This document shows, one piece after another, positions 5,721-49,100 of a stretch of 64,000 nucleotides of DNA; the stretch's first letter is position 1; the number at the start of each line of letters is the position of its first letter. The notes under the pieces were generated by a model. The model was given only the letters and a program-made list of their open reading frames with translations. It was not told the DNA's origin and searched no databases. The stretch comes from Amphiscolops sp. MND2022 (taxonomy: Eukaryota), in the NCBI GenBank assembly GCA_964187785.1, contig OZ076412.1, positions 53,258,001 through 53,322,000 of the forward strand. Reading direction: 5' to 3'. The translations under genes were made by a program, and so were the position numbers.

Positions 5721-7716
5721 ATAGAAAGAAATGAAGAAAAAGGTATTTATTGTGAATGTATATCGCTATTGAAAAGTTTAATTTTTCTTCGAAAAATTTT
5801 TAAAGCTACACTCTTTGAAAAAGTTTATAGTTGGATGCCAGCCAGCTTTCGGGAATGGAATATAAACGTTTCATGCCATTCAAACGTTTCATTGGTCCAA
5901 AAAACCCATTTCGTTCAAACAAGACTTCAATTGGATATCGTTCCAAGCTGTTCTAGGAAATTCTAGTTAACAATGCATTTTTACATTCCGAGACTTTGGA
6001 AAATGTTTGTTGCTCATATCGGGACCTATTTTCAATTCACATCAACTGAACATCATAATCCAGCAACAAACAGAGGCGTATCGCTTTTTCCAAATTCTTT
6101 ATTAGCACGAGGGGTAAGAAAAAGGTCATTATTGACAAAGATGTTGGTGTTTTTGAAACTCCTTTTGTTTTCAACAGTTGATGTTCAATGTCACGTCGGG
6201 AAAACCCGGCATTACGTGGTTTAGGACCAGTGGCACCAAGTTGTTTAACCTTAACAAGTTCTAGTGTCGTTTTTTCATTTTTTTACTTTTGCTTGTTCAG
6301 CTGCAAGAAAAACCTTTTAGAAGACGTCCTCTCCAGGTCTCTATTCCTCGCTCCACGATATGAGCGTGTGGCCTGCGCTCATTTTTGTTATGACAGAAGA
6401 CAAGTTCTGCAACAACTCGAAAATCACAATAAAAAACCGAAGAAAAATGTTTAGAAGTGAGCTTCGGTACCCAGGTAATGGTCCAGATGATGCAGCCACT
6501 CCCATCAACTCCTGGCCCTGTGTATTCGAGGTTATTATTGCTGTCTTCATTTTTCTCCCTCGAGTCCTGAATTGAGTGTTGAATTATTACTTGAATGGCT
6601 CATCTCAGTCGTTTTGGGTTTTCAACAATTGTTCTGTTTTTCAAGTTTTTCACAACAAACAATTAGTCCATATGATTTTCCCCACTCAGCCAACAAATAA
6701 GTTAATTGCTGCTGCGGACGCTCAAGAGGTTGGCGCTTCACTCTAGTGAACCTTTTTACTAGTAAAAAACGCTCCTGAGAAAATTTTCAAGGCCGTTAAA
6801 GACGCTATCCAACCTATGTGACTTAGCATTTAGGGATTTTTTGAGTACTCAGCAGAATCTGATGGCCCAAATAAGTAATCTTGGGCATGATTGAAGCAAG
6901 TCGCGCTTTTTCGGCTTTGTATTGATGTGTCAACAAACTCAATTGAAAACTTTTCATTGAAACGAGTCCCAAGCAGCACACAAAATAGTGTGTTGACATG
7001 GAGGGATCAAACCCTCCAACATATTGCACGCAAAGTAGTCGATCCGGGGTTCCAAAGGTGCTTCCATGAGCAAACTATCAAGTGAATTGCACGCAAGAAG
7101 TATGTCCAGCATAGGTTCAAACGTCTGAATCTCGTCTTGAAAGCATTTCATAACGACTGTCAGAGGTCTGTGTAGTTTAGAAACGTTCATCACATATCAT
7201 GAGAAATAAGGTGTACATCGTGAGTCGAAGCTCAAAAGTTTCATCAATTCCGATCAGAAACAAACAGGAAAGTACATTGAAAGAGCAGACTAATTCAAAA
7301 ATGTTCCTTTTTACAGTAACACCTCAAAACAATCATTCATTGAATGCGGTGTACATCGCGGTTCACATTTAGGCCAACTAATTTTTCTTATATTAGTGAA
7401 CGACTTTCTGAACTTCAGAAAGATAATTTCCGTATGTTTTGCTGCCTAGACCAGGTGTTCTGAACATATTCCACCACAGGTGACTGGGTAAGAATGAGTT
7501 AAGTTTCGCATTGATGAAACGCAGGAAGGAACTTTGCTAAATTGCGAGGACAACAGATTGTGTGACGTAGTTTTTGGCTGATGCTTCTGGATTTTAGGGC
7601 CATCCCACGTATTTGCATTTCAATTGCAGAGTGCACTTCGATGTTCTGTTTATGTTCATTTTGAATACTTTAGCTGGTATCGTTTACCCATAGCAGCTGA
7701 GGAAATCAATTCATCT

Positions 7717-9582
7717 TGTCGCAGGCTGCCGCCTGTGACGGTACGACAGTGACTACGTCGGCGAACGGACAAGAGTTTGTACCCGGAACACTACCCATCT
7801 ATTGATCGGGCTAAACTTTAAACTTAGGACTTTTACGTCATTTTGTTATACAATACATATTATGTTTGTTGATGTTGCTAGCTTTAATATATATACTTGC
7901 ACATGTAAAATTAATCTGTTAAAAGTTACATTTGAAGATCCAAATAATATAGTTGTGGTTTCAAAGATTGAAAGGCGCTTTGCAATTGTAAACGCAATAC
8001 GTGACAATGTAGCTGTATAGCGTAAAGGAAACGAGTTCAAATGGACGAAACTCTTATTCCGGAGACGTCACTTGAGCTCAGCATTTTAGCCAATCACATC
8101 GCTTCTCTTTGCTATATTAGTACTGCTTTGATTGTGTAGTGGCCGAGTACGGCCAATTGACTCAATATATATACTTCACTACACGCTTCAGTCAAATGGC
8201 CAATTCCGGCCACCTAGATGAAGTGAATTGTATACTCGTGTAATTAACCATATTAATCGGAAATTGCTATAAACGTATCCCTAATGATGAATGAAAGCCT
8301 CCACCCCGATCAATGAACCTAGTAGACCTAGTGCTAATTTAAAGGCCGAATAAAGCCTTTGCCCTCCCTTATTACGATGCTAGATTAATAAACCGGATTT
8401 GTCCATTTTCGGCCTTGTTAAAAGATGTGTTACTTTGATGGTGTAGTACTATTTTAAACAAGCTGATCATGTAATGTTTGATTTTGTTTCAACCTGTGTT
8501 AAATAATAAACACGTGGCAACGCGTGTCGTAATGACATTCCAAAAGGGATGCCTCTTACATTCCTTCAGTGAGTATTGGTATTTGTTGACCAGATAATGG
8601 TGATGATGTTTTCATAAAACAATGATTAGTGGTGCGGTTTGTGTACCTACCGAAGTGCTATTTATTTGATGTTGGATTCTCAGAAATTACCTGAATGTCG
8701 GGAATTTACCCGATTGGGGTTTCACTCAAATATGTGCTTTGAAGTGTTGATTACTTCACTAGTAATAATGATGATGTTTATCCCGTGACCTGTTAAGGCC
8801 GCGATCATGTAATATTCTCCTAATCAAAGAATCCGTGGAATGTGGCTGTCACCTTTTGAGAGTATATATACCCATGTTTCGAGAGGAGAAGTCATATTTT
8901 CCACATCCCTGCTTTGATAAAGATTGAATTGATATAACGATTCTCAACTAGTTTTCCGGTTTAAATAATTGAACTATTTGACCCGGTTCTGTCTTGATGC
9001 CTGTGACTAGGAAACAAAAGAAAGCGAGGAAATCGAGAGGGATAGAGATGCTCTCGGATATACAAAACTTAGACATCATGCTTGGTGAAAACCATTATAG
9101 CAGGAATGAGAGAGATGAGAGCTTTAATAGTAATCAGGCTAGGGGACCAAGAAGCGTCCCAAGAGATGAATTTGAAAACAATGGTGATTATAATTGCCTG
9201 GAAACAGGTAGTTTCGACCCCGGTACTAGTGCCAATCATGGCCAAAATTCAACAGGAGACAATTCAAGTGCCGAGATCAACAGGTTGTCAAGCGAGTTGA
9301 ATTCGAGATTGTCTAGGGAACTTGATGATATGATGAGTAGTGTTAATACCCAGATCCAGAGGGCAATCAATGATGCGATCAGTGGTCAAATTTTACCGCA
9401 AATCCAATCTGTCCTAAATGCCGGATCGGGACAATCGACACTAAATAAATGGAACGTTTCATCCGTGAGACCGGAAGTGAACTCCGAAGAAACCTATGGT
9501 GAGAAAGCCAAAAAAGGCAATAGAAGTGAGCAGCGCTTTGATTACCAAAATGGTAGCCAGCCTAACTTACGTGCCTACGACA
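7717..9582 (+). repeat. 5' LTR (1866 bp)
   Basis: Direct repeat of 22045-23911 with about 55 differences by hand count (~97%); begins TGTCGC and ends CGACA. Confidence 0.95.
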
Positions 9583-10715
9583 TGGTGACAGGAGACAACG
9601 AATCTCCTATCGAAGCTCCTGAGTTTCTCACGGGTCGAATGCCACCCAGAAACCATCTTCACAGTTCCCATGACAACTTCGACCCACTACTAGACACGAC
9701 GATCCCAGCACCCGAAAAGAATGCTCAGGCCCCTGAACTAGATCTCATCAACCAACTGGCTGATGCCCTGACAAGCATGCAGAATCGTCCTTCAGCCCAA
9801 CAGCTCACTATCCGCCCAGTCAACTCAAACACAATGACTTTCGATGGCAAAAGTGAGAAATTCGAACTGTTTGAGGATCTGTTCCACACGATGATCAAAA
9901 TCCAGCCTGAAATGTTTGAACAAATGAAAATTAATCATTTCCATTCGCTGTTAAAGAAAAACGCCTTACAAACATTCCGAAACATTAGCACAGCTAATAG
10001 ACAGACCCTTGAAGACGTATTAGTCATATTCCGACGAAAATACGTCAAACCTGAATCTCAAGCAACTGCCAAACACAGATGGCACCGTCTGGTGTTTGAT
10101 CCAAACACAACAAAACTACCAGATTTCGTTGAAGAATTGAATCAAGGTGCAGAAAAAGCGTTTAGAGACAACCCCCAAAAGATGATTGACAGCCTCCTAT
10201 ACGCAAAACTGCCACCGAAACTAAAAAGATCAGTTAATATGGCTAGATTAGAAAACAGCTCCTATGATGAAATCGTCGCTCACCTCGAGAGAGAGTTGGA
10301 GTTAAATGCTCTTGAAGAGTCCGACGACCTTCCAATGGCACCAATGACATCTTCAACCCCGAAAACCAAAACTGTTCCGTCCAAGGCACAGATGAGCGTC
10401 ATCACATGCAACTACTGCAAGAAAAAGGGCCATATGGTCAAGGATTGCGAAAAACTCAAAAAGAAAAAGGAGAAAGAAGCCCAACAAGGCAAACCGACCC
10501 AGAAAAAGACCTACCCCAAACGCAGTACTTGTGGCAAAACCAACCATCCTGAAGAGAGATGTTGGCAGGGAGCAGGTGCGCACCTTAAACCCAAACGCAC
10601 CAGACCAGAGGACGCGTCAGACAATGATCCTGACTCTAAGGTCTCCAAACCCCACTACAAGCCAACATCATCCAGTTCTCAAACTTCATCCAGCAAAGAT
10701 GACCAAAAAAACTAG
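8997..10715 (+). CDS. gag: Gag polyprotein (572 aa) beginning inside the LTR
   Basis: Intact ORF; capsid-like region (TFDGKSEKFELFEDLF...), zinc knuckle CNYCKKKGHMVKDC and a degenerate second knuckle STCGKTNHPEERC. Confidence 0.9.
   Translation: MPVTRKQKKARKSRGIEMLSDIQNLDIMLGENHYSRNERDESFNSNQARGPRSVPRDEFENNGDYNCLETGSFDPGTSANHGQNSTGDNSSAEINRLSSELNSRLSRELDDMMSSVNTQIQRAINDAISGQILPQIQSVLNAGSGQSTLNKWNVSSVRPEVNSEETYGEKAKKGNRSEQRFDYQNGSQPNLRAYDMVTGDNESPIEAPEFLTGRMPPRNHLHSSHDNFDPLLDTTIPAPEKNAQAPELDLINQLADALTSMQNRPSAQQLTIRPVNSNTMTFDGKSEKFELFEDLFHTMIKIQPEMFEQMKINHFHSLLKKNALQTFRNISTANRQTLEDVLVIFRRKYVKPESQATAKHRWHRLVFDPNTTKLPDFVEELNQGAEKAFRDNPQKMIDSLLYAKLPPKLKRSVNMARLENSSYDEIVAHLERELELNALEESDDLPMAPMTSSTPKTKTVPSKAQMSVITCNYCKKKGHMVKDCEKLKKKKEKEAQQGKPTQKKTYPKRSTCGKTNHPEERCWQGAGAHLKPKRTRPEDASDNDPDSKVSKPHYKPTSSSSQTSSSKDDQKN
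9583..9594 (+). promoter_or_regulatory. Primer-binding site TGGTGACAGGAG
   Basis: TGG immediately after the LTR-terminal CA; resembles the complement of a tRNA-Leu 3' end (TGGTGTCAGGAG, 11/12). tRNA identity is uncertain. Confidence 0.75.
10706..10712 (+). promoter_or_regulatory. Putative -1 ribosomal frameshift heptamer A AAA AAC
   Basis: In X XXY YYZ register directly before the gag TAG; the -1 frame is the frame of ORF 11048-11251 leading toward protease. Confidence 0.7.
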
Positions 10716-13700
10716 CTTCGCCACGACTCCAATATAACCAACTCGTCTCCGTCCGACAATACATCAAATCGGACCCTCCAACTAAAAACTTCCACAATTA
10801 CAAACAACAATTGATGGGCTACCCCTCTGTTGTCTGGCAGCAGCAGATGGATAAAGCTATAATCATTACTTACAACAACACCCATTTATTCCAAAAACCA
10901 ATTCCTGTCTAGGACCCGGACTATACAACTACCTTCCCTACCCGGTTCAGGCCCATTCCCCTGATCGATGATTACAATCCAATATACATCGACCCAGACT
11001 ATGGCAGAGATCCTTATTGGGACACTGAGATTTATAACCAGGACCTCTTGCAATTCCAGTATGTCCTAGATGACATTGAACACTACAACATAACAGTCCA
11101 CGAGAACCCTCTAATTACCCATAACAAGAAAACACGGGCACTAATTGAAAATTGGCAAATGAGCGATGGTACAATCCACCCAGTCTTCCCAAACCCGCTG
11201 GGAACCGAAAATCCTGAAAATATTGCCGAATCCATACAAAATTACTATTAGACGAGAAACAATCCAGAATGTACTCATAACCAAAGATGGTGAACCAGAC
11301 TGTATACCCCTGTCAACCAACATTATTCTCAAATGCAAGAAACGCATGCTTTATTTCCCAATGGACTTTGGGGAAGTGACCATTGATGGACTCATCGACA
11401 CTGGGGCACTGTCCAGTGCAATTCCTGAAATGGACCTCCGGAAAATCCGCCTTTCATTTCCACAATTTGTCATCCGGGAAGGTCCCCCTCCAAACTTCCA
11501 AATCATGGTCGCTAATGGGCAATTGGAAACTCCTAAGAGCACCATAGAGCTCAAATTCGAAGTTGGTGACATTGAGTTCCATCAAATCTTCATAGTAATG
11601 GAACATTTGACAGGACCAATCATTGGACTAATGTTCCTTCAGAGAAATCATACAGTCTTGGACATGAGACAAGGAATCCTGAATTTCCCGTTCTTTTCAA
11701 TGCAGCTTAAAACAGCTGACCACAAATATTCCAACGTACTAGAACCAATTCTCAACCCCACTAAGATAACAACTCCGCCAAATGATAGAGTCCAATATAG
11801 GACCAATTCCTTACTGTATCCTGAGAATGCGGTTACTGGGATTTTGCAACCGAGCGACCTCCTACATGAAGAAAGCGACATCACATTTTGCCCAGCCTTG
11901 GTCACTCTAAATGATGGCAGTATATCGATACCTGTGAATAATTTCACAGACCACCCTTATAAACTTAAAAAGGGACTTCATATTGCCAATTTCTTAGTCA
12001 TGACGCCAGAACAGATGAAATATGTCAAACCGGTAGACCCAGCTTCAACCTGGCACCTCTTGCAAAATGACCAAGAGCAGGCAGCCCATTATGTCAGCAG
12101 CCTCATCAAGACGAACAAAAATCCTCAGAATTCCAAAAATGACTGGTTCCCAACCCCAGAAAACCCTGGAAACCCCGAGGAACACACACCCATCCAGAAA
12201 AAAATCCTTCGAGAACTACAGGCCTTACAGGACCTGGAAACACTCGACCCCACCAAAGATGAAGAATCTCGTGCAAAATTCCTAGAAAACTTTGATTGGA
12301 AAGATTCCACCCTTACTCCTGAAGAAAAGGAGAAAATTGAGGAATTACTAGTAGAATTCCATGACATATTTGCACGACACAGATTTGACATAGGCATGAA
12401 CGAGGACTTCAAGGTGAAACTGACGCCTAAGGACGATTCCCCGGCCTATAGTCAAAGCCTTCCAGCACCTATCAATCTGAAGGAGGACATCCTAGTTGAA
12501 TTAGCCATGTTACACAAATATGGCATAATAACTACACTGCCATTTTCGAAATATGCAAGTCCAATATTCGCACAAAAGAAACCGAACGGAAAACTCAGAC
12601 TCTTGGTCGACTTGAGAAAAATCAACAACCTCATATCCGATGATTACATAAACAATAATCACCCCGTCAGTACTTAAGTCGACGCCGCCCAACACTTAGC
12701 GGGCAAAAAACTGTTCTGTAAACTAGACTGCTCACAGGCATACCACTGCTTGCCGATGGCTGACCAACAATCGATTGAAATGTTGGCCTTTAACTTCGCC
12801 AGTCGCACATTTGCATACAGACGTTTGGCACAAGGCCTTAGCCGGGCTCTGTCCACATTTTCGAGCTTTATGAGGGAATACCTTGACAAAGTCATCAAAG
12901 CGGACCAATGTGCCTAGTATGTGGACGATATCGGCATCGCAGCCAAGGATGCTGACCACCTCATAGCTAACCTGAGAGCAACATTCAAATGCATTCAGGA
13001 AGCAGGCCTTAAGTTGACAATGCACAAATGTCACTTTGGTGCAAAAGAATTTGATTTTCTCGGACGAACTATTACTCCACAAGGCGTCAAACCCCAGAAA
13101 CAGAATGTACAGAACTTTCCGGAAAAGACCAATTTCCCGAAGTCGAAAAAGGCTTTACAACGCTATTTGGGCTTCCTGAACTATAACAGGAATTATGTCC
13201 CAAGACTTTCAGAACACCTTGCTCCATTCTATAAGATGCTGAAAAGTGACGAGAAGGTCCCAGTATTGAAGGAATTAGTCCAGCAATTTGAAGAAATCAA
13301 TAAAGCACTAGACAAACGCTGCGATTTAGCCCTACAACAACCTATACCGAACAAGCAAATTGCACTAATGACTGATGCAAGTTTTGGTGCAGCCGGGAAC
13401 GCGGTCCTAATTGAAGACGACCCAAGCCAGAAATTGACGTCACTCAGAAAGTCCTATGCCACTGTAGCATATGGATCAAAAATCTTCACCCCGGCACAGA
13501 TCAAAATGTCAATTTATGCCAAAGAATTCCTTGCAATTTCTTTTGCATTCAAAGAATTTGGACACATCTTCTGGGGTGCGCCGAAACCGGTCATTATCCT
13601 TACAGATAACAAAGCTGTCACGCAATTTTTTCAAACGAAAATAATACCTCCAGCCCTGTGGAACGCGTGCGATTATGTGATTCAGTTCAATTTTGTCACA

Positions 13701-15901
13701 GCGCACATCCCAGGAGCACAAAATACAGCTGCCGACTATTTGTCCCGCCTGGAAGCGGACTCGAAGGACAAATTAGTCATCAACATCCGCGAAGATGTAC
13801 AAACGGTACCAATCGAAATAAATGTCCAATCAGAAGGGGTGTCACAGGAAGAACAAATCTTCTACACGAATGACGACGTTGAGACAGAGGAACAATACTG
13901 GGCAAGGAAAGAAGCAATCAGGAAAAATCCAGCTATTGAAGAGCCAACGGTTACAATACAAACTCTGTCAACAAATCTGGTCAAGCAACACCCTGATATA
14001 CAAGTCCGATTGAGGAAGGCGATTCAGATCATTATCGAGCAATCCAAAGATCCGGTACTACAACAATTGAAAGCAAAACTGCTTCATGAAGAGTATTCAG
14101 AAAATCTACTGCAACAGGAAGCTCGATACAGGCATTATGAAAACAATCTGGAACGAATTGTATTAAAGGACGAAATCCTGACAAGGCAATACTTTGATGA
14201 AACAGGGAACGTGGAATACCATCAAATTCTGCTCCCGCAACACTTACTCCAGGAATTGCTTCAGTCTCTTCATGGGACAGCGCACAAACACTCTGGTTTC
14301 TCAAAACTTTTGCAGGAAATTCGACAGAGGTATTACTACCCTAGCATGGCTAAACACGTCAAGAAATGGGTAGAAGGGTGTGAAGAAAGTGCAAGGGACA
14401 AACGAGTCCCCAACGCAACAATTACGCCTGAACTACTCAACTTGCCCGAATGGGACCTTGGACCTGAGGACGCCATGCAGATTGACCTATTGCCGAATCT
14501 TCCCCCAATTGGAGGATTTAAAAATGTCCTAACAGCAATTGACGTATTCTCTAGATATTTGTTCGCCTATCCTCTTACGGACGCATCGGCGATCAACGTA
14601 GCAAAAGCCCTCATTGACATTATGACTAAGCACGCATATTTACCGACAACACTTATTACTGACAAGGGTACTGCATTCACTTCCACGATCATTGCGGAAA
14701 TTACGCAAATTTCGGGGATAACACTCAAATGTGCAACAACAAAACACCCACAAACAATTGGGAATTTGCAGCGGACCCATGCCTCACTGAAAACAAATCT
14801 CAAAATGGCATGTGGAGAATACCGCCGACAATGGCACAAATACTTGCCACTAGCAGTACTAAATCACAACACTAGTTACCATACCAGCATCGGTTGTGAG
14901 CTGACGAGAGTATTTCATGGAAGAATTCCATATAATATCTTGGATCACAAGCTTGGAAACAATCCAAACGAGCAAGTCAACCCAACAACCGAATTTGCGG
15001 AAGATTTACAAAACCGGACAAAAATCCTGATTGACAAAACAAAGCATAACATTATGCAGTCATATATCAAGTACAAAGAGTATTAGGACCGCAAGGCAAA
15101 AGCCGCTCCATTAAGGGAGAATGATTACTGCTTTGTATTACAGCCGAAAGCGGATCATCAAGGATCAAAAATCCCATTCCGTGATTATAGGTGGGTCGGA
15201 CCATTTATAGTCCAAAAAGTTTTACCTAATGAAAAATATATTGTACGACGAATCAATACAAACAAGACTCAAATATTGCATCGAATTCGCCTTAAAAAGT
15301 TTGTCCCCAATCAAGCGCTTGAGGATAATTTCCGAGAACAGCGGTTACAGCCTGATGAAGAGATCGTCATTCCGCAAGACGACTTATATACCATAACGTG
15401 GGAAACAGATTTTGGCGAGCAGCTCATAACACGAGGACACGATCCTATTCCGTCTAGCTTGCCGAGTGCGGCAGAAGCGAATTCAAGTGACGCAAACGAG
15501 AATCAAGTGGATTACATAATCACGAGAGACGAATCAAATCACGCTGACTGTACGGCGCACAGCCGGAATGAACAATTAACAGATGACGTTACCAAAAGAA
15601 ATGAAGCTGATGAAGAGACTAGAAATGAAGAATCTGATTGGCCGAATCCGGCCGTTTCCCCAAAAAGTCAAGAAAAAGCTTTGCCGAAATCGGATGATGG
15701 ACTAAAAAACGATGAAAATTTTTCACAAAGAAATCCGATGAATGAAAATGATGTACAAAATTCTCCAAAAAGGGGAATGATATTATCGTGACCGAAATAT
15801 CGGAAAATGATACCAGAAAGGAAAGCCTGAGCCCTAGAGGAGGGAAGTATAATCTCAGGCCTAACCCTAACCCAAACTACTCAGAAGACTTTAGATACTA
15901 G
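10713..15901 (+). pseudogene. pol: Pol (aspartic protease, RT, RNase H, integrase), disrupted by stops and frameshifts
   Basis: LIDTGALSS (PR); YASPIFAQKKPNGKLRLLVDLRKIN and YVDD at ~12918 (RT); LMTDASFG, ILTDNK (RH); HGTAHKHSG, QIDLL, TDKGTAF (IN); WVGPFIVQKV C-terminal module; ends NPNPNYSEDFRY*. Confidence 0.95.
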
Positions 15902-17289
15902 AAAAGGCTAAATTCAGCTCACAAATGAGCCTGGAATTCTTTTTTCTTTTATCTTTTTCTCTTTACCAGTCCCAGGAAAGTATTTTTGAACAAATAATGG
16001 GACCTCAAAGGATCCCTTCCAGAAGAGAATAAATACGGGATCAAGAAACCAAAGAAACAAAATGACAAATACAACAGAAAAAAACAAAGTTTACAGTCTA
16101 GGTGTACATATATACATATGCACAATTAGTCTTTAGAGCTGCTAGTCGTAGCCTTCATCACTACGGAGGATGACCTGGACCGGGACTGGCTCCTTTCCAT
16201 ACGTCTCCGCTTGGTGTCGCTGGGCAGCCTAATAGCGGGAGCATCTCTCACGGAGGGAACGTCAGCTGCAGTAACATCCTTACAACTCGTTCCTGCCCCA
16301 GAAAGAACATAGCGATGGGAAGACTTGAAGGACTTGTAAATGGACGAACGCCCGGAGTTATCCACATATGTCCAGGGATAATATTCGGAACAGAGTCCAG
16401 ATTGCCCGAATGAAGGAGGAGAGCAGGGAGAATTTTTCAAGGCTGACATCAGTACAACAGAGAGCTAGGGAGTCAGAAACCTCAGATAGGTAACTTTGGC
16501 AAGGCAAAACTACATCCGATATTCGTGACTGAAGGCCTTGAGTGTCTACCTTCCCCATCGCCACAGCTGGATATCGGGAACTAGCAGAGGTTAAACACAG
16601 ACAGCTCAACTTGAAAAGGTAATAGAGGTGCTCATGCGTTTGCAGGAAATCAAGCCCCATAAGGAACTCTATGAGGTCACATGAGTCATCAGTAAGGCTC
16701 GGGTTGGAAGAATGGTAAGTTCGGAGATAATCCAGCAATGCCAGATACTCGTCCCTGCACGCAGCCTCGTTTGGCCCAGTGACCCAGGATCGCAACTGGA
16801 AAGTTGAATATAGGATGCCAAAGTGGCGGAGAGCCACCTCAGTAGGCCGTTTCATCATGATGTAAGGGTCAAAAGCTGCCAACCCCTTGACAATACCAGA
16901 GCTAAGACCAGTATGCTGGAGGACACCTCTGAGTAGGTGCTCGATGTACCTCTTGGCACTGGTTTTGAAGTCGGACTTGGCTGAGTCGGCTGTCTTATCA
17001 ATGACAGCCTTACTTGACTTCTTGTTGAAAAGTAATTCTGCAGCCTTCAGATTACTAGCAGCAGCCACCTTGTTGGTCATCTTGAGTCTGACTAGGAATT
17101 CGTCACCTTTCATGAATTTCCCGTCGCTAGTCCGAAAATCCAGCAAGAGAAACCAGGCACTCTCGAGAGGGACAGTGTCGTGCTCATACACCCGAAAGCA
17201 AAGCCGGCTGATGAACCTGCAAACCTCCCCGCAGAGGTAGAAGGTAGCGTCCCGTCTATGAGAAAGATTGACGGTAAAACTTGAGACGT

Positions 17290-17360
17290 CTGAAACACAA
17301 AACCAAAAGAGTCCATATCAGGACATGTGACCAATGCATACCGAAGCATAGCTTACTCAC
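17290..17360 (-). other. Intron 3 of the antisense gene (71 bp, phase 1)
   Basis: GACT|GTGAGT ... TTTTGTGTTTCAG|AC; joins ...QRLIND to YVSSFT, in frame with ORF 16358-17191. Confidence 0.8.
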
Positions 17361-17577
17361 AGTCGTTGATGAGACGCTGAAAGAATTCCAGTCTGACGGA
17401 GAAGAACTCATCGGATATCAAGGACCACTCAAAGCTCTGGACCTTGTTGTGCACACCCTGGTTCTCCTGTCGGCGGGAATGGACAGTCAGATATCGGAGG
17501 ACTGACTTCCATCGCTTGAGTATATCCCGACATAAATCCGGGAGTTTGTCTACTTCCAATTTGCTGGTAGTTATAGC

Positions 17578-17644
17578 CTAAATACAATGAGGTTATGAAA
17601 CTTGTCATACAATTGCATGTCCCTATCACTTCGTCCTACGTTAC
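17578..17644 (-). other. Intron 2 of the antisense gene (67 bp, phase 0)
   Basis: ATG|GTAACG ... TCATTGTATTTAG|GCT; joins ...AFCFTQM to AITTSKLEV in frame. Confidence 0.7.
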
Positions 17645-18157
17645 CATTTGAGTAAAGCAAAATGCACTAACTCGAGTGAGCTCAGATGATTCCAGGACCC
17701 AATCTTCAGTGACAGACCCGCCTAGGGAAACGAGGAGGCATTGTAGGACGGAGAACATGTCAATATGGCCAAACACACTGTAAGTGAACTTGTGCATCAG
17801 AAGTTGTAAATCAAGCTATTCAAATCGGAAGCAGCTCTGGATGCCTCGTGAGTAGAAATGATGCTGGTCAATTGTACGAATATAGTCCACAGAGCAGGCC
17901 GAGCAAGCAACAATGTCGGGATCGGTTGACACTACTGATATCAAACGTGACAGAGACCCCAGTTCACCGGTGAGGTCAGCAGCAGGAAGCGCACTACGAC
18001 AGATGAAAACCCTACAGAGTTTGGTCTCCCTCCAATAGCGCAGAAACATCAGACGACCTGTCCCACTGTCCTCAAGTTCGATGGAAAAATGCTGTGCTAA
18101 AGTCACTTGTTCAGCAATGTCCTCCATGACTCAGTTGAAAAAATGTTGGAATATAGC

Positions 18158-18310
18158 CTGAAATGCAGAATGGAGTCACTCACAAGATAATGCAATTTCA
18201 CCTATGTCAGCTCCCATACATTTATTTACGTGCATATATGCAATATTATACAAGTTCGTATGTTAAAGTGTAAGTAGGAATCGGAAACAGGACATTCGAA
18301 TTATACTTAC
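18158..18310 (-). other. Intron 1 of the antisense gene (153 bp, phase 0)
   Basis: ACA|GTAAGT ... TTCTGCATTTCAG|GCT; joins ...DWSEERIT to AIFQHFF. Confidence 0.75.
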
Positions 18311-21169
18311 TGTGATTCTCTCCTCACTCCAATCGAAATCGTGGAAGACTGTCTGGTAGTCAGTGAAGGACCCGACTCGTGACCATAAATTCCGGAGGAC
18401 GGTTAATTCCCCCTGCCTTTGGATGAAGTCCCCGATGAGGCAAATCTGAGTTTCAGCACGTGACTTGGGAGTTACTAAGGCTGTGGTGCTTCCTTGAGAT
18501 AGTCCCCATAGAAGGGGAACCTTTCTCCTACATCAACAAGTTCGGTGTGAATGAACTTTGGAAGTTCCAGCGCCAATTCAACTTTACTGAGGATCTTCCC
18601 GTTCTTCCCTCTAACCCTATGTTGGATTTTTCCTGTGACGGGGTCAATGCTCCTGAGATGCTCGTAGCGCCAACGCTGGTCCCTTCGGAGGTGTTTTTCG
18701 GTTCGATGGTGCCTAAGAACTTCGACCACCCCTTTCGTCTTCACAGAAAAGTTCTTTTTACACATGTGGCACCAGACCATGTGCGGATTATGAAGGGGAT
18801 CTGCGGGGCCAGATATGAAGGACCGAGTCCATCCGATCTTGGAGAAGAACTCTTCTCGCATGGGTACTCCTCGTCTCGGAGTGGTTTTGGGCTTGCGGGT
18901 CTTCTTGCCTGACTTTTTCCTTTGAAGTTTTTGCGTCGAAGGTTGCTCTCGTAGTTCTGACAATGTCGCATCAAGACTGCTTTGTCCTGTGGATTCTTCT
19001 CCTCTTCCAACTGATTCAAGGACTGTTGATGATTGCTGTGCAGGCCTGGTGTCCTCGATCGACGATCTTTTGAAACTGTTGGCTATCAGAGCCATTTCCC
19101 TTGAACTATCGCTATCCTCCGGCATTGATACACCCACGACTTCAAGCAATGCACTAAAGTCCCCACTCGCCTCTGAATCCTGTCCGGGATCGATGAGGAA
19201 TCCTTCGCAACTAGAGCTTCCTGCTTGTTGTGGTCTAGGTGTCTGGGCTCGGCTCTTGAATTGCCCAGTTGTCGAAGGGGCCGTGGCTAGCTTTCCTTTC
19301 ACTGCACCTATGACCATTTGCTCCATGGTTGTACAGGTCATGCTGATGGCCTCATCGGTCAGGACTCGTAACAAGTGGTAGATCTGAGGCTCAGTAAAAG
19401 CTACAGTTCTGTGGCCCACTGGGAAAGTGTAAGGGTCTTCGGCCTCGAAATACTGTTTTAAAATAGCCCTGCTGCGACCAGACAACTCTCTTAGTGGTTC
19501 CTCCTGTTGTCGGGCACCCATCGTTGACGTCCCAAGTGGGTCGTTAATGTAATTCTCAAGCTCAGTATCGGTGTCTTTTCCGGACTCAAGCTCTGAACAA
19601 ACTGGAATCGTTCCGTACAGTGGAGAAAGTCATCAAGTCCAGAAGCCGCTTCCGTGGTATCGATGTCGCTAGTCTCCTCGGTTACTCGAGCTTTCCCTTT
19701 GGGTAACGGGGGAGGACCACTGGTTGTTGATGAGGAGTCTTCCTCAATTTGCAAGAAAGAGGAATCTGGGACCACTCTTGATGTTAAAGCAGTGACTTGC
19801 GGCTCAGGGAACTCAGTGGAGGTGGTTACAGCGATTTGTAAGAGTGACTCAAGCTGGGATAAACTCGGCGACTCACCTAGATTCCGACCAGCCTGCGTTG
19901 GGGTGCTGGTTTTCCTAGGATCTAAGAGAGGGGGGGTGGACAAACCCCCCGTGCAAGAAGAAGCTACGGGTCTGCTTTCGTCAGTTTCCTCTGCCGGTGG
20001 CGATGCAGCAACTTGGCTTGCCTCCACTCGCTGTACCATCTACGTCGCGTAAGCAGTAACATCCACATTACTGTCAGTGCTGAGAGGGGATTCAGTAGTG
20101 TTCTGATCCTGGAATGTCACAAACCTGACGTGAGGAAGAAGAGTCGGGATCGGATCCTGAGCAAGATTGGCAGTGAGGACAGAAGACGGGTCAAATGTTT
20201 GTTCGGACTGTGCGTGGATGTTCACCGTGGTGTTGGTTGGAGTTTGATTTTCGTCTACATTCTGATTCTCTAAACAGAAAGAGATGAAATTTGGCGGTGA
20301 GCTTCCTTGAAAGAAATCCATTTTGCCGCATTAGAAAACTTCCGGAAGCGTCTTGAAAACTTGAATGAAGTGTGTTTGCACGCGTTCATTGACGGAAATA
20401 GGAAGCGTTTTATGAACAAATTTACCCCTGATCAAGTTAAATTAAGTTCAAATCAGAAACAAACCAACCTTCAGCGGATGACATTCTATGACGAGTCAAC
20501 TGTTGGGAACAAATCCTTGACTGGTTGCTGATAATTGGGAAGTCGGCTGGATCCGGCAGGAAGAGAGAGGAACCCTCCGACAGAGAGAGGTCTGCAGCTG
20601 AGTCAAAGGCGAGGAAAGACAGGTATTAACAAAGCAAATCCAAGTAAAAGATACAATTGGAATATAAATGGAATTAAGTTGGAACTGAGACTGGGTGAAA
20701 GAAATTAAAAGATTGGAGTTCGTGGCTGAAGAACATTACCAGACTAATATTATATGATTATCTACATATTTAAAATGTACATGGAGTCTGCCAGTGAAAT
20801 GTACAGAAAGTTTTCATTATTCACAGTTTGATTAGTTAGAGGCCGATTATGGCCGTTTGCCTTATTTTGTTTTACCGTTTTGTTCCGTTGTCCCAGTTCT
20901 TCTTAGTTAGAATTTTCGCCATTTTGAATTATTTTAGGTATTATTTTCGCCATTTTAATTATTCATTTTTCATTGTATCAATGAGTAACTCTGATTGGCT
21001 GAAGCCATTTTGGGTAGATTCAGTAACGCAAGCCGTTAATCACCAGCAAACAACCTGTTAATTACCCACTTGAAGTGAAGTTATTTGTTGATAACAACTT
21101 GAAGATGCTTCTCTCACCCACTTGAGAAATGATATTAGGGGGTCTTACCAACTACAATTCAAAGAAGCG

Positions 21170-22133
21170 ATGCCGCTAAAAATTCCATTCAGGAAAGTTT
21201 ACGACGACTCGGGACGAGAGGATCTACTGCCGAGTAGAAAACCCGGAAAAAAGTCCCAACTCGGCATACGACGGAATTTCAGTAGATTCATTCTGCCTCA
21301 AATTATTCAGCAATCAGTCGTCTTACCAGCTTCGAAAATCGCTAAAAAACTCATAATGAGCAAGTTTAACCTCTCAGGAAAATTGTTTGACTTTGAAGAA
21401 AATGATTTTGATAACTCCGATAAATCAGTAATCTACATATCCAGTAGTGAAGATGAGTCCTCAGACTGGGAAACCGATTGTTCGACGGACACCGAGCAAC
21501 TGATAGCCCGGATTGAAAGAGAAGTTACTTCCAGCCCAATGCTATTCGGGGGCAGGATAATGACCATGGATGAACCCGAAGAGGCGAAAGCAGAGCCAAG
21601 TACGTCTCAAGTGGAAGAAGGAGTGACACCGAAACTAGGCCTTAAATACTTCGATAAAGAAATGTGCTATGCCCCACCAAGGAAATTTGAAAAGAAGCGC
21701 ATAGAGCTCTGTAACACAATAATGCCCGTCCTATAATCGCCAATGTCTCCCCCGGAGCACGAGAGGGGTCCAAGTGTGGACACCCCCTTCTCCAGCCGAC
21801 CTCGAGTAACTTTCATGCGTCCTACCACGGCAAAATACAGTACCCTATCAAAATGTCAGTGAGGTACGTTATACAGGATGCATGGTTTGCGGCCGTTCAG
21901 TGGACTCAATCAAGGACGAAAAGCTGAAATGGTATATGCAACGATCTACACCAAGAGATGAGCCTGAATACATCACGAGACTCAGAAAGGAGGCATATGA
22001 AAATGGACTTAATGCTGGCTGTTTTCTTTTCATCACACCCGCAGTGTCGCAGGCTGCCGCCTGTGACGGTACGACAGTGACTACGTCGGCGAACGGACAA
22101 GAGTTTGTACCCGGAACACTACCCATCTATTGA
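21170..22133 (+). pseudogene. Sense accessory ORF (ORF3), one nonsense codon plus one frameshift, extending 89 nt into the 3' LTR
   Basis: ORFs 21122-21736 and 21882-22133 link through MSKFNLSGKLFDFEEND...VIYISSSEDESSD...YTGCMVCGRSVDSIKDEKLKWY...TPAVSQAAACDGTT...TLPIY*. Confidence 0.6.
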
Positions 22134-23911
22134 TCGGGCTAAACTTTAAACTTAGGACTTCTACGTCATTTTGTTATACAATACATACTATGTTTGTTGA
22201 TGTTGCTAGCTTCAATATATATACTTGCACATGTAAAATTAGTCTGTTAAAAGTTACATTTGAAGGTCCAAATAATATAGTTGTTGTTTCAAAGATTGAA
22301 AGGCGCTTTGCAATTGTAAACGTAATACGTGACAATGTAGCTGTATAGCGTAAAGGAAACGAGTTCAAGTGGACGAAACTCTTATTCCGGAGACGTCACT
22401 TGAGCTCAGCATTTTAGCCAATCACATCGCTTCTCTTTGCTATTTTAGTACTGCTTTGATTGTGTAGTGGCCGAGTACGGCCAGTTGACTCAATATATAT
22501 ACTTCACTACACGCTTCAGTCAAATGGCCAATTGCGGCCACCTAGATGAAGTGAATTGTATGCTAGTGTAATTAACCATATTAATCGGAAATTGCTATAA
22601 ATGTATCCCCAATGATGAATGAAAGCCTCCACCCCGATCAATGAACCTAGTAGACCTACTACTAATTTAAAGGCCGAATAAGGCCTTTGCCCTCCCTTAT
22701 TACGATGCTAGATTAATAAACCGGATTTGTCTATTTTCGGCTTTGACAAAAAGGTGTGTTACTTTGATGGTGTAGTACTATTTTAAACAAGCTGATCATG
22801 TAATATTTGATTTTGTTTCAACCTGTGTTAAATAATAAACACGTGGCAACGCGTGTCGTAATGACATTTCAAAAGGGATGCCTCTTACATTCCTTCAGTG
22901 AGTATTGGTATTTGTTGACCAGATAATGGTGATGATGTTTTCATAAAACAATGCTTAGTGGTGCGGTTTGTGTACCTACCGAAGTGCTATTTATTTGATG
23001 TTGGATTCTCAGAAATTACCTGAATGTCGGGATTTTACCCGATTGGGAATTCACTCAAATATGTGCTTTGAAGTGTTAATTACTTCACTAGTAATGATGA
23101 TGATGTTTATCCCGTGACCTGTTAAGGCCGTGATCATGTAATATTCTCTTAATCAAAGAATCCGTGGAATGTGGCTGTCACCTTTTGAGAGTATATATAC
23201 CCATGTTTCGAGAGGAGAAGTCATGTTTTCCACATCCCTGCTTTGATAAAGATTGAATTGATATAACGATTCTCAACTAGTTTTCCGGTTTAAATAATTG
23301 AACTATTTGACCCGGTTCTGTCTTGATGCCTGTGACTAGGAAACAAAAGAAAGCGAGGAAATCGAGAGGGGTAGAGATGCTCTCGGATATAGAAAACTTA
23401 GACATCATGCTTGGTGAAAACCATTATAGCAGGAAGGAGAGAGATGAGAGCGTTAATAGTTATCAGGCTAGGGGACCAAGAAGAGTCCCAAAATATGAAT
23501 TTGAAAACAATGGTGAATATAATTGCCTGGAAACAGGTAGTTTCGACCCCGGTACTAGTGCCAATCATGACCAAAATTCAACAGGAGACAATTCAAGTGC
23601 CGAGATCAACCGGTTGTCAAGTGAGTTGAATTCGAGATTGTCTAGGGAACTTGATGATATGATAAGTAGTGTTAATACCCAGATCCAGAGGGCAATCAAT
23701 GATGCGATCAGTGGTCATATTTTACCGCAAATCCAATCTGTCCTAAATGCCGGATCGGGACAATCGACACTAAATAAATGGAACGTTTCGTCCGAGAGAC
23801 CGGAAGTGAACTCCGAAGAAACCTATGGTGAGAAAGCCAAAAAAAGCAATAGAAGTGAGCAGCGCTTTGATTACGAAAATGATAGCCGGCCTAACTTACG
23901 TGCTTACGACA
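22045..23911 (+). repeat. 3' LTR (1867 bp)
   Basis: Copy of 7717-9582, followed by the TSD CATCT. Confidence 0.95.
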
Positions 23912-24061
23912 CATCTACATCTTCTTTTTTCCTGGTTGCCGGTAAGGATTATGTTTTGCTCAAGCGACCTTATTTTTGTTGATTTGATACTGGTGGAGAA
24001 GTGCATAAATCACTAGAGGCTCCAATCACTGACGTGATTCATTAGACAGGTGTACAAGGTA

Positions 24062-24785
24062 TGTACCGTCCAGCAAAAGACGTCACAAAAATTCGATGAA
24101 ATGTGCGATAGCAAAATTTCTAAATCAAGATGGCCGACCTGACAGGTACTGGAAATTGAAAAGGATGATGAAAAATAATGCAAAGACACCCCCTCCAGCC
24201 CGAGAGAGAACACACCGCCACAGAAGTATCCCCGATATCGCTGTGTTGTGCCATCTCCCTCGGAAGACGTCCCAGCTGCCAGCAGAGCCCGAAGAATGGC
24301 CCAAGAGATGAAGAAACTCAGAAGTTTGCATATTTTGCATGTGCCACCTAGTAGGTCCAAGACCAAGGCTCTCTGACATTGACGCCTGATGTTTCTTTAG
24401 CCTGTTGTACCATATTTGTGGTTTTTGTAGAAGTTTGGTGATGTTATAGCCCTTATTTCAGCCAGTTTAGACGTTATTCACTAATTAAATGTACTTTGGC
24501 TAAACCCCTGTTTTTGGACCTCGGAGGTATTTAGGAACACGCAGGAGCCTTAGGAATTGTTTTTACAGGCTTGTGGGACGTGTCCGGACTTTGAGAGCGC
24601 CGGCACGTCGCCTCGGAGCTCTAATAGAGGAGACTCCTTAGACAATTGGAAAAGTCCCTTTTAGGAGACCAATTTGGGAATAAAAACAAATGCCTAGGGC
24701 TGTAGTAACACAACCGTCTCCTGTCTAAGCACCCTAGGCATTGTCCCACTTCTATGATGTACTCTGCTAGGTGGCTGACGTTACA
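24062..24785 (+). repeat. 5' LTR of element 2 (724 bp)
   Basis: Direct repeat of 28370-29094. Confidence 0.9.
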
Positions 24786-27335: not shown

Positions 27336-28685
27336 ATGAGTGACGAAACGACTTTTCAAACAATCTAACGTCTGTAGCCAAGCAGGCTTCCCAAAAAATC
27401 AATATTCGTTGCTCGATTCATGCCTAGGGTGAACCTCGGTTCTCGGTACCACAGTTGCGTGAACCATATCAATGTGAAAACACCGGACAAGAGATTGGCC
27501 CGGGGAGTACCTGTAGTCTCCCGAGAGAAAACAACACCAAGCATGATAAAATACCTGGAGCTTCGAAGCTCTGAGAACTGCTTGGCCAGCGGCCGTGCTT
27601 TTAAAACTCCACTGATTGCTCTGGAACGCATTTTTATTGCCAAAGACTGTTTTCATTGTTTTAATGATCTGCCATACCTGATTTATTAACTTCCGTTGGT
27701 CATAGTCTATCATCGCTATCGACATAATCATCCTCTTGAGAAGCAGTTTATTTCCATCTTTTACATATACACTGGTGCCTATTTTACCTACACAACACCT
27801 TTATCTGAGCGTACACTGCAAACTCAATAGATTGAATTGGTCCTCACTTTTGGTGACATTTTTGATTTATGGGATCAATTTTTCCGCTGGTGCTATTTTT
27901 TGTGCAGTTTCTGTTGGCCAAGAACTACGACCGTTTTGCAAGACCACAGCCATTACTTTTATTTTTCGCTTTTCAAGTGCTATCGTGCATTTTGTTCAAC
28001 CTTACCTATCAGGTAGGACCCAGGTTGATGTCAATCCTGTTGTGATGTGTGCTTTTTATACAGATGCATTAAAATAAAGTGATAGAAATTTTAGGTGCGA
28101 AATTAAAAATTTGAAAACGTTTCCAATAAAATGCTGTGTGTCTAAAGTTGCTAATGCTATTCCAGTGCTAGAACCCATTATTGATGTGGAATCTGAGGAG
28201 GCCTGCTAGGCTAGCTGCAAAAACTCATCTTTTTGGGCAATGATATTTTGGGCAACGACTTTCATTTAGATTCCTGAAGCTGTTGCAACAGTATCACTGG
28301 ATGATGGCAACCGAGACGTGAACATCCACTCTCGTTTGTCGAGGACGACAAACTACGGCCCGGGGAGGATGTAACGTCCAGCAAAAGACGTCACAAAAAT
28401 TCGATGAAATGTGCGATAGCAAAATTTCTAAATCAAGATGGCCGACCTGACAGGTATTGGAAATTGAAAAGGATGATGGAAAATAATGCAAAGGAACCCC
28501 CACCCAGCCCGAGGGAGAACACACCACCACAGAAGTATCCCCGAAATCGCCGTGTTGTGCCATCTCCCTCGGAAGACGTCCCAGCTGCCAGCAGAACCCG
28601 ACGAATGGCCCAAGAGATGAAGAAACTCAGAAGTTTGCATATTTTGCATGTGCCACCTAGTAGGTCCAAGACCAAGGCTCGCTGA
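27336..28685 (+). pseudogene. Decayed accessory ORF of element 2 running into U3; product unknown
   Basis: ATG at 27336 after a pyrimidine tract and CAG; broken plus-strand frames 27420-27689 and 27736-28077; frame open 28305-28685 across the PPT/LTR junction. Confidence 0.4.
28362..28369 (+). promoter_or_regulatory. Polypurine tract GGGGAGGA of element 2
   Basis: Purine run directly abutting TGTAAC of the 3' LTR. Confidence 0.7.
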
Positions 28686-29094
28686 CACTGACGCCTGATG
28701 TTTCTTTAGCCTGTTGTACCATATTTGTGGTTTTTCTAGATGTTTGGTGATGTTATAGCCCTTATTTCAGCCAGTTTAGATGTTATTCACTAATTAAATG
28801 TACTTTGGCTAAACCCCTGTTTTTGGACCTCGGAGGTATGTAGGAACACGCAGGAGCATTAGGAATTGTTTTTACAGGCTTGTGGGACGTGTCCGGACTT
28901 TGAGAGCGCCGGCACGTCGCCTCGGAGCTCTAATAGAGGAGACTCCTTAGACAATTGGAAAAGTCCCTTTTAGGAGACCATTTTGGGAATAAAAACTAAT
29001 GCCTAGGGCTGTAGTAACAAAACGGTCTCCTGTCTACGCACCCTAGGCATTGTCCCACTTCTATGATGTACTCTGCTAGGTGGCTGACGTTACA
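28370..29094 (+). repeat. 3' LTR of element 2 (725 bp)
   Basis: Direct repeat of 24062-24785. Confidence 0.9.
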
Positions 29095-47219: not shown

Positions 47220-49100
47220 AAAACTGCAAAATTTTCCAATTTTATGCAATTTTTGTCAAATTATCGATGAAATTGCTGGCTTTGAATGTTGAAAACAATC
47301 CAGAGAGAAAAAATTGTTATCCAAGAGGCTTTTTCAAAGAAATACAATTTTTTAATGAAAAAATGCCTCAAATTTGGACCGAAATTGACAAAATACTTGA
47401 AAATTCAGATTTTTGAAACATTTATGCAATTTTTGTACACTTTTCGAAAGACTTGGTGGCTTAGAATGTTAAAGACGTTCAAAAAGGAACAAGTTAGTTG
47501 TCGTGGAGGCTTCTTTGAAGAGATAAAAGCAATTGGTGTTGAAAAAATGCATCAAATTCAGACCGAAATTAACAAAAATACAAAAAAAAATGAATTTTGA
47601 AAATTTTATGCAGTTTTTGTGTACTTTTCGAAAAACTTGGTGGCTTAGAATGTTGAAGACGTTCAGTAAGGAACAAATTCGTTGTCGTGGTTGCTTCTTT
47701 GAAGAGATAAAAGCAATTGGTGTTTAAAAAATCATCAAATTTTGACCGAAATTGACAAAAACACAAAAAAAATCTAATTTTGAAAACTTTATGCAATCTT
47801 TGTGTAATTTTGGAAAACCTTGGTGACTTAGAATTTCAAAGACGTTCAACAAGGAACAAATTGGTTGTCAGGAAGGCTTTTTGAGGAAATAAACGAAGTT
47901 TTGTAATGAAAAAAACGCACGATTCGCGACCAAAAATGACAATAACTTCAAAATGTACCAATTTTTCACGTTTTCATGCAACATTTGTCAAAGTTCTAAA
48001 ACTTTTTGGATCAGAACGTTGAATACCTTCAACCACGAATGATTTCGTTGTCCAATAGGGTTGTTTGCGGAGATAAATGCAGCTTTGTAAAAAAAGGACC
48101 GCAAAATAGTCGAAAAATGGTTTTTACATTTTTGTTTTTTACAACGCAATTTTCGTAAACGTTTCAACCTTTTCATGGATTAGAACTCTGAAACGATTCA
48201 ACAACAACTGAAAGCGGTGTCCGGTGGGCCTTTTGATGGGACAAGTGCAAGTTTCTGGTAACGAACGTGCTTTAATTTGAGTCAGAAATTGTCGAAAACT
48301 CCAAAAATTTCCAGTTTATGTAGGTTCTTCATGTTATTTGGGACAATTTTCAGGAATTTGTTGAGTTAGATGGTTCAAAACAGTCAAAAGCGATAGAATC
48401 AGGTATGTAGTTTCCCTTCTTGATGAGAAAATTACAGTGCTTTTCATCAGAAATACTTCAAATTTGGAGTTTTTAATGCAGTTTGTGTTCAAATTTTGAA
48501 AGTTTTTGTGACTAGGAAAGTTCAAAACACTCAAAACGAAACCGCTAGCTATGCAGTATGCTATTTTGAAGAGAGTTGCTGTATTTTGCTTCAAAAGTAC
48601 TTCAAAAGTGACCCCGATGAGTTGGAAATAAAAAGTCTAAATTCAACGTTTTTTATGCAAAGTTCTGAATTTTTTGAGAAGTTTCCATCGTTGGAAGACA
48701 GAAAACCCTCAACATCGAACAAATGCGGCAGTTTTGGCAGTTGTTCGACAAATTAGTGAATTTCTATTGAAAGTTACCAAAACTTCCTAATAGTCCAGAA
48801 GTCTAACCTTTTGGAGTAAGCATGCAGAATTTTAAAAAAAGAAATCTACAATTGTGTATGCAAGAAGTTCGTCAGAAGGACTTGAAATTTGGTGAAAATC
48901 AATTTTTTGTTTTTGAAATGTTGATATACTTTTTTTGTAAACGTTTCGAGCAATTTTGTAATTCAAGAACGACTGGACCCGTTATCCAATAGGTGTTTTT
49001 AAAAAGACATCTACAGTTTCTTATAAAAGGGTTTCTCAAATGACCGCAAAGTTGTTGAAAAAGCAAATTTGTAGAAATTTTGACGTTTTTGGCGAATTCG
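47220..49100. repeat. Degenerate tandem array, period ~180-184 bp
   Basis: TTATGCA anchor at about 47242, 47422, 47606, 47789 and 47974; increasingly divergent units continue toward 49100. Confidence 0.7.

Follow-up and report, generated by a model that had tools for sequence, protein, structure and literature searches.

A Ty3/gypsy LTR retrotransposon clade in the genome of Amphiscolops sp. MND2022 probably carries, on the strand opposite to gag-pol, a spliced gene for a captured and disarmed hAT transposase, which may bind DNA as an accessory factor of the element. One copy lies in the window, the stretch of 64,000 nucleotides analyzed here. A preliminary description of this DNA had proposed three spliceosomal introns preserved inside a retroelement because they are antisense. 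We examined the host element, the splice junctions across copies and families, the fate of the introns during retrotransposition, and the encoded protein.

The antisense gene resides in a Ty3/gypsy LTR retrotransposon

The element that contains the antisense gene spans positions 7717 to 23911 of the plus strand (16,195 bp, ∼16.2 kb). Its 5' LTR (7717-9582, +, 1866 bp) and 3' LTR (22045-23911, +, 1867 bp) both begin with TG and end with CA; they are 97% alike (K2P 0.030) and are flanked by 5-bp target-site duplications (TSDs) reading CATCT (7712-7716 and 23912-23916, +). A primer-binding-site-like 12-mer that starts with TGG, TGGTGACAGGAG (9583-9594, +), is common to all families seen. The gag ORF (8982-10715, +) matched Pfam zf-CCHC and, weakly, DUF1759, and has one stop in the window copy. 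The Pfam domains of pol (11163-15791, +) follow the gypsy order PR-RT-RNase H-IN; pol is broken in the window copy and forms a single ORF of 1705 to 1751 aa in unbroken relatives. Direct LTRs, a short TSD, and gag followed by PR-RT-RNase H-IN establish that the host element is a Ty3/gypsy LTR retrotransposon. The 3' third of the LTR (8982-9582 and 23311-23911, +) is an open frame that continues into gag across the primer site.

An extra sense ORF, ORF3 (21095-21736, +), separates the antisense gene from the 3' LTR. It is present in all groups, has 270 to 360 aa in relatives, starts with an acidic Ser-rich segment, and gave zero matches in a Pfam search. The expected site of the polypurine tract (22020-22044, +) is pyrimidine rich and acceptor-like and ends in CAG, likewise in the sister group; distant groups have a G-rich tract at this site.

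Elsewhere in the window, we noted a second, unrelated decayed LTR-type element (39338-43918, −) with weak rve and DUF1759 matches, a tandem repeat (47241-47906) with a unit of ∼184 nt in 3 to 4 copies, a direct repeat (24061-24481 and 28369-28790), and a host exon (52327-54000, −) with WSD and PHD domains, which is presumably BAZ/WSTF-like.

Exons and introns of the antisense gene

The antisense gene is read from the minus strand, to which all coordinates in this section refer. A predicted short first coding exon (20469-20484, ATG at 20484) precedes a 5' intron, here called intron 0 (20270-20468, 199 nt, phase 1), which the preliminary description had missed. Exon 1 (18311-20269) encodes a long S/T/P/E-rich stretch, then a basic patch, then a BED-like finger. 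It is separated by intron 1 (18158-18310, 153 nt, phase 0; 68 to 160 nt in other families) from exon 2 (17672-18157, 162 codons), which encodes a predicted RNase H-like core. Intron 2 (17578-17671, 94 nt, phase 0) is followed by exon 3 (17361-17577, 217 nt), in which the site of a further, ancestral intron (17442-17443; 67 to 191 nt in other families) is exactly vacant in the window family. Intron 3 (17290-17360, 71 nt, phase 1) leads to exon 4 (16126-17289), predicted to be helical and like the hAT C-terminal region. The ancestral gene thus had five introns and the window family has four; the predicted protein comprises ∼1,280 aa, as the sum of exon lengths.

The three segments of 153, 67, and 71 nt first proposed as introns do start with GT and end with AG on the minus strand, and their pyrimidine tracts and the continuous protein across the junctions were found as described, with the donor of intron 2 corrected to 17671. 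For intron 2, the acceptor at 17578 was correct, but the most likely donor is not the one placed at 17644: GTTAGT at 17671 extends the intron by 27 nt. The 17671 equivalent reads GTTAGT in 30/30 close copies, the 17644 donor reads TG in 2/30, and an in-frame stop occurs inside the extra 27 nt in 4/30. Both donors are in the same phase, the one at 17644 being the weaker. We therefore set aside the 67-nt intron as the main form, since the 17671 donor is conserved and an intron-less copy joins exactly there; the 67-nt intron may be a minor alternative.

The suggestion that each intron restores the reading frame is true of the family and fails for the window copy, which has stops at 20042 (exon 1) and at 18133 and 17818 (exon 2) and frameshifts near 19625, 18495, and 16414, the last in exon 4. 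With these stops and three frameshifts, the window copy is a pseudogene in a family whose gene is functional. In a young subfamily, 12/15 copies have open splice-predicted frames in exon 2, in exon 3, and in the stretch of 3' exon 1 that was examined, and exon 4 is open to the stop codon in 14/15.

Splice junctions are conserved across families and the exons are under selection

A DNA search of the same genome gave 42 matches from the 40 candidates scored, out of 945, and we compared 30 loci. These close copies divide into an older set, near that of the window, and a younger one at ∼81%. With three exon-4 relatives as queries, we found many further families in the same genome, down to ∼30% protein identity. 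For the junction test, peptide anchors of 20 to 22 residues from an unbroken natural copy were placed on both sides of each junction and the adjoining bases were read blind in 90 loci, with 3 to 4 weak-anchor rows left out per junction. A given dinucleotide is expected by chance in ∼1/16 of cases, but the copies are kin.

Intron 1 had GT in 83/87 and AG in 84/87 scored loci, intron 3 had GT in 85/86 and AG in 84/86, and the corrected donor of intron 2 was GT in 86/86. The conservation of GT and AG among copies on which the preliminary description had staked its claim was therefore observed, at 83 to 86 of 86 to 87 scored loci per junction, and the exact borders of introns 1 and 3 were borne out. 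The pattern extended to 44 loci of more diverged families, where GT and AG were found, respectively, in 42/44 and 44/44 loci for intron 1, 43/43 and 42/43 for intron 2, 40/43 and 43/43 for the ancestral extra intron, and 36/38 and 38/38 for intron 3; intron lengths there ranged from 64 to 191 nt, mostly non-multiples of 3. The ancestral fifth intron, inside exon 3, was present in 54/54 scored loci of the other groups. The 5' intron is also shared among families, at ∼190 to 215 nt, and is in phase 1 in 41/42 loci with a donor; an in-frame ATG lies just 5' of this donor in 34/42 loci, and 5/47 views lacked the motif or the donor.

Among close copies, segment lengths shift by non-multiples of three and exon lengths are constant. 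If the AT-rich segments were left unspliced, they would either keep distinct small ORFs apart as spacers or be sites of frameshifting. We give this explanation almost no credence, because families of 30% identity share GT and AG at homologous codons, the segments change freely in length, and their exact absence leaves a continuous frame at three positions. From this comparative evidence, we consider the introns real and likely to be spliced.

Between subfamilies, dN/dS was 0.04 to 0.15 in all four exons, and it was in the splice-predicted frames alone that substitutions clustered at third positions, which shows strong purifying selection on the exons. The elevated divergence anticipated for the introns was seen for introns 1 and 2, where 0.26 to 0.42 of sites differ between groups, similar to third positions; intron 3 followed it less well, its divergence (0.18 to 0.24) lying below that of third codon positions (0.22 to 0.40).

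The introns persist through retrotransposition in the antisense orientation

The antisense gene was opposite to pol in 39/40 views of 20 kb, the remaining view being without pol, and in 26/26 shorter loci with pol in view. Its copies are dispersed LTR insertions that have kept their introns, with LTR pairs 96 to 100% alike and matching 5-bp TSDs in 18/26 views (scored by a script, one false match removed). An integrase tree and trees of exons 2 and 4 recovered the same deep groups, which shows that the gene and pol were inherited together. Dispersal by LTR insertion, opposite strand, and shared deep groups together imply that the introns went through many rounds of retrotransposition.

Introns on the sense strand are lost in retrotransposition, as described in the available part of PMC2923131, and orientation is thus the likely reason for the survival of the introns studied here. 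The sense strand showed no depletion of donor motifs beyond composition (45 seen versus 49.8 expected). In the mechanism that we propose, the genomic RNA would be the plus strand, in which the introns are invisible to the spliceosome and are copied by reverse transcription, and a separate antisense mRNA would be spliced. The earlier idea that antisense placement lets a retroelement spread an intron-containing gene thus stands in its core, with 39/40 views opposite to gag-pol; the protection it implied is leaky, introns being exactly absent at three positions. The accompanying suggestions, that splicing might license nuclear export or help the mRNA to evade small-RNA surveillance, gained no support.

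Several copies have near-identical interiors and quite different LTRs, and some combine the antisense gene of one group with a partly divergent pol (L031-L050, L087, and L099). From such mismatched LTRs and pol, recombination between families appears to be frequent. Internal tandem duplications and tandem arrays sharing LTRs were also seen (L087/L088, L131, L133, L263, and G000:C5:3368637-3397971). One element with open gag-pol has lost antisense exons 1 to 3, and another view has the antisense gene and no gag-pol within 20 kb (L143 and L145).

Single introns are exactly absent in nested lineages, probably by loss

Intron 3 was absent to the base in 6 loci that form one clade (SH 96), with intron-bearing sisters adjacent. 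Intron 2 was absent in locus L180 and present in its sister L181, the join falling exactly at the 17671 equivalent. The intron-2-less state of L180 recurs on five contigs, in one copy each. We examined three of these copies: two are full length, with TSDs and LTRs 99.9 to 100% alike, and the third is cut short. Of 29 window-family loci scored, 28 exactly lacked the ancestral extra intron, as did L187. The exon-4 tree (SH 84), unlike the exon-2 tree, grouped L187 with the window clade, which leaves one or two losses. No window-family copy without intron 1 was found in 87 scored loci, among the best-scoring candidates.

We read these absences as losses because the intron-less lineages are nested; the trees are unrooted (the integrase tree without an outgroup) and midpoint drawn, so that polarity rests on this nesting, and loss is the simple reading. 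The exact absence of single introns confirms the junctions and indicates that the antisense protection is strong but leaky, and excision exactly at GT-AG borders points to real splicing, as indirect support. The reverse-transcriptase model of intron loss expects the 3'-most introns to be lost. The lost introns are the three 3'-most of five, a bias that would be as expected from this model, judged from few events. Rarely, spliced antisense mRNA or its cDNA would act as a short template, and one intron would be lost exactly; since antisense mRNA has the polarity of minus-strand DNA, a template switch during plus-strand synthesis, or gene conversion by cDNA, would suffice.

It is conceivable, though in our view unlikely, that the gene acquired its introns once it was within the retroelement, for instance because they help to express or export the antisense mRNA, and that selection is the main force retaining them, with orientation merely permissive. 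The invariant motifs within intron 0 described below fit such a gain, as does the fact that the search for free hATs revealed none with introns at matching positions and that some free hAT ORFs of the genome are long and uninterrupted. However, all five positions are common to the deepest groups, so any gain would be older than the clade, and lineages without one or two introns have multiplied and stay open, so single 3' introns are dispensable.

The encoded protein is probably a disarmed hAT transposase

The BED-like finger encoded in exon 1 (∼18690-18830, −) has the form W...CxxC...HxxxxH; the CxxC...HxxxxH pattern was present in 14/22 loci scanned, and Pfam zf-BED was unmatched. The exon-2 model has the order of an RNase H-type fold (helix, three strands, helix, strand, helix). 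In a Foldseek search with this model, Hermes transposase occupied 7 of the top 8 rows, with a best E value of 2.2e-3 and none at E ≤ 0.001. VIA-align placed 152/162 residues of exon 2 on chain positions 153-391 of Hermes at Z 6.9 and rmsd 6.4, a score that other RNase H-like folds equaled, and aligned the exon-4 model (pLDDT 88) with Hermes residues 367-609 (rank 12, Z 5.0). Taken together, the VIA matches had Z under 8 and rmsd 5.7 to 6.4, and helical or other RNase H-like folds scored as high or higher. For exon 4, Hermes was the only one of 50 rows to cover most of the model, and ESM Atlas neighbors carry Dimer_Tnp_hAT at 0.92 to 0.93.

Sequence and profile searches were negative. Pfam gave no match for the antisense exons or for 95 exon-4 relatives, Foldseek (at E ≤ 0.001) and a PDB sequence search with exon 4 were empty, an ESM Atlas search with exon 2 found no match, and neither did a search of the genome with the DUF4371 profile. 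Free hAT elements are numerous in the genome, with 150 scored matches above the Pfam cutoff and some uninterrupted ORFs of 600 to 700 aa (L196-L225). Among 443 ORFs from 30 of the 150 Dimer_Tnp_hAT loci, no HMM match was convincing (best E value, 0.009, over a short stretch), and hhalign against a shallow 13-row alignment of free hATs gave probabilities of 0.1% and 0.8%. For the comparison of intron positions with free hATs of the genome that was first suggested, no relative close enough was found. Because the weak structure matches agree with one another and their order is colinear on Hermes, we are fairly confident of hAT descent, the negative sequence and profile tests notwithstanding. A hAT DNA transposon would have inserted into, or been captured by, the ancestor of the clade and so given rise to the gene.

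The strand-4 position at which hATs have Asp is S/T in 70/71 sequences (assigned by motif and predicted strand), and the ERxFS-type motif of free hATs is absent from exon 4. On strand 1, acidic residues are conserved (E27 in 70/71 and E29 in 62/71), and some metal binding through the conserved strand-1 Glu is possible. By comparison with the hAT catalytic residues, the DDE triad appears lost and the transposase disarmed.

DNA transposition retains introns. The gene might then be a still-active nested hAT transposase, whose cut-and-paste spread would keep introns regardless of orientation, and the hAT-like fold, the BED-like finger, and the conserved acidic strand-1 residues are what such an enzyme would have. 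Yet the gene is bounded by LTRs with 5-bp TSDs and not by TIRs with an 8-bp TSD: copies end in TG...CA LTRs whose pairs are near-identical, and no inverted repeat of at least 40 nt was found around the gene in the window. The strand-4 substitution and the missing ERxFS-type motif also tell against activity, and the gene was never intact outside the LTR architecture, save in one view without pol. An active hAT is thus largely refuted and, in our estimate, very improbable.

Conserved motifs in intron 0 and possible functions of the protein

Within intron 0 (20270-20468, −), the motifs TGATCA, CTTCC, the palindromic CTTCCGGAAG, GCGG..ATGGA, GGAAG, and CCGC are nearly invariant, and motifs including TGATCA, CTTCC, CTTCCGGAAG, and GGAAG were invariant in 29/29 diverged loci whose proteins are 30% alike. 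They lie between the antisense gene and the sense ORF3, and we take them to be ETS-like. An RNA structure was considered and rejected, since the motifs can pair but show no compensatory change; as they do not covary, we read them as DNA sites. They are likely to be protein-binding sites and are candidates for targets of the protein or for promoter elements.

Strong selection in every family, a DNA-binding finger, and probably no catalysis make a nuclear accessory factor the most likely role. The protein would act on DNA for the benefit of the element, in transcription control or counter-silencing, with the invariant motifs of the gene's own first intron as possible targets. This is the weakest step of the mechanism, and we rate its chances as slightly short of even. 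A more specific reading, offered tentatively, is that the disarmed hAT regulator binds these first-intron sites and drives or shields the element, contributing to its rise to thousands of copies, and that the spliced mRNA enters the particle as a plus-strand template.

With introns and gene equally real, the protein might instead act in the particle or the integration complex, as an integration tether or as a chaperone of RNA or cDNA. The inheritance of the gene with pol through all deep groups agrees with this, as do the zinc finger and the predicted integrase-like RNase H fold, and an exact intron loss would be easiest if the antisense mRNA reached the particle. The long acidic S/T/P-rich N terminus and the invariant, non-covarying motifs of intron 0 would, however, fit a DNA-level regulator slightly better, and we regard the particle role as possible but doubtful.

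Comparison with known systems

Antisense ORFs of plant Ty3/gypsy elements (Retand/TRP28, Grande gene23, and RIRE2) and of the fungal element Boty (brtn) occupy the same site, between pol and the 3' LTR, in the same orientation. According to PMC7264820 and the available part of PMC11963269, these ORFs are retained in most copies, a nuclear regulatory role has been proposed for them, and Grande gene23 has its own promoter. The plant ORFs lack similarity to other transposable elements, and a search for spliced transcripts has been urged (PMC7264820); the word "intron" does not occur in the main text of PMC11963269. Whereas these plant and fungal antisense ORFs have no known donor, the gene described here has a predicted hAT fold and had five introns ancestrally. 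Pfam gave no match to TRP28 (PF04195) or the plant mobile domain in the exons or in 95 relatives.

The HBZ gene and the APH-2, -3, and -4 genes of deltaretroviruses are expressed from a spliced antisense mRNA with the ATG in a short first exon and encode nuclear regulators of the virus's own transcription (accessible portions of PMC3185765 and PMC10186651). The gene described here shares with them an antisense mRNA from a retroelement, here predicted to be spliced, and a predicted ATG in a short first exon. HBZ and APH have their start in the 3' LTR, their products are small, and they overlap genes of the sense strand; the gene described here, in contrast, has a predicted first exon 1.5 kb inside the 3' LTR, its own 4.4-kb space, 4 to 5 short introns, and a product of ∼1,280 aa.

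Penelope-like elements keep introns, and an antisense template has been proposed as the explanation; the consulted part of PMC3846280 presents them as the only retrotransposons able to disperse intron-containing genes. They are not LTR elements, and the LTR clade described here is a counterexample with respect to its own cargo. In retrotransposition indicator cassettes and LTR-mediated retrocopies, splicing is limited to one strand and templates switch in the particle (PMC2923131 and PMC5131818, each in part). The intron of an indicator cassette is on the RNA strand of the element and is lost; in the element described here, introns are on the other strand and are kept, with rare exact loss.

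In the structure search, the protein resembled Hermes and ZBED-type proteins by a BED-like finger, an RNase H-like core, and a helical and C-terminal region in the same order. It differs from them in having no sequence-level match, catalytic positions that are not kept, a long disordered N terminus, and no TIRs, and, unlike ZBED-type proteins, it would have been domesticated by a retroelement and not by the host.

In the literature searched, with many subscription papers outside its coverage, we found no LTR retrotransposon with an antisense gene that is hAT derived and has several introns, and the accessible parts of PMC4408406, PMC6431247, PMC8365987, PMC9289625, and PMC9911081 describe no intron-bearing antisense gene. 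Gypsy elements with antisense ORFs are thus known, as are spliced antisense genes of HTLV, and what appears to be new is the multi-intron form.

Abundance and implications

The retrotransposon family is large and has multiplied recently. The antisense gene is very abundant in the genome, with 6,990 to 7,753 first-look candidates per protein search, figures that are not copy numbers. In a library clustered at 50%, exon 4 had 431 relatives at E ≤ 0.001. The best matches of two of these, P0009 and P0081, in the genome were only 46% and 31%, which makes it probable that the family extends to other species; no locus turned up in two metagenome scans. Given its abundance, the gene may matter for genome size and will be misannotated as host genes.

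The stable spread of a multi-intron gene, which the available part of PMC3846280 treats as peculiar to Penelope, is here extended to an LTR retrotransposon. How the plant antisense ORFs originated is left open in PMC7264820; for the accessory gene described here, a hAT is the likely donor. With nested, exact, 3'-biased losses of single introns in many datable copies, the reverse-transcriptase model of intron loss becomes countable within one genome. If spliced antisense mRNA does serve as a template in the particle, the family would be a natural, many-times replicated record of intron loss mediated by reverse transcriptase; if the protein does regulate its own element, an animal gypsy clade would have domesticated a DNA transposase for itself.
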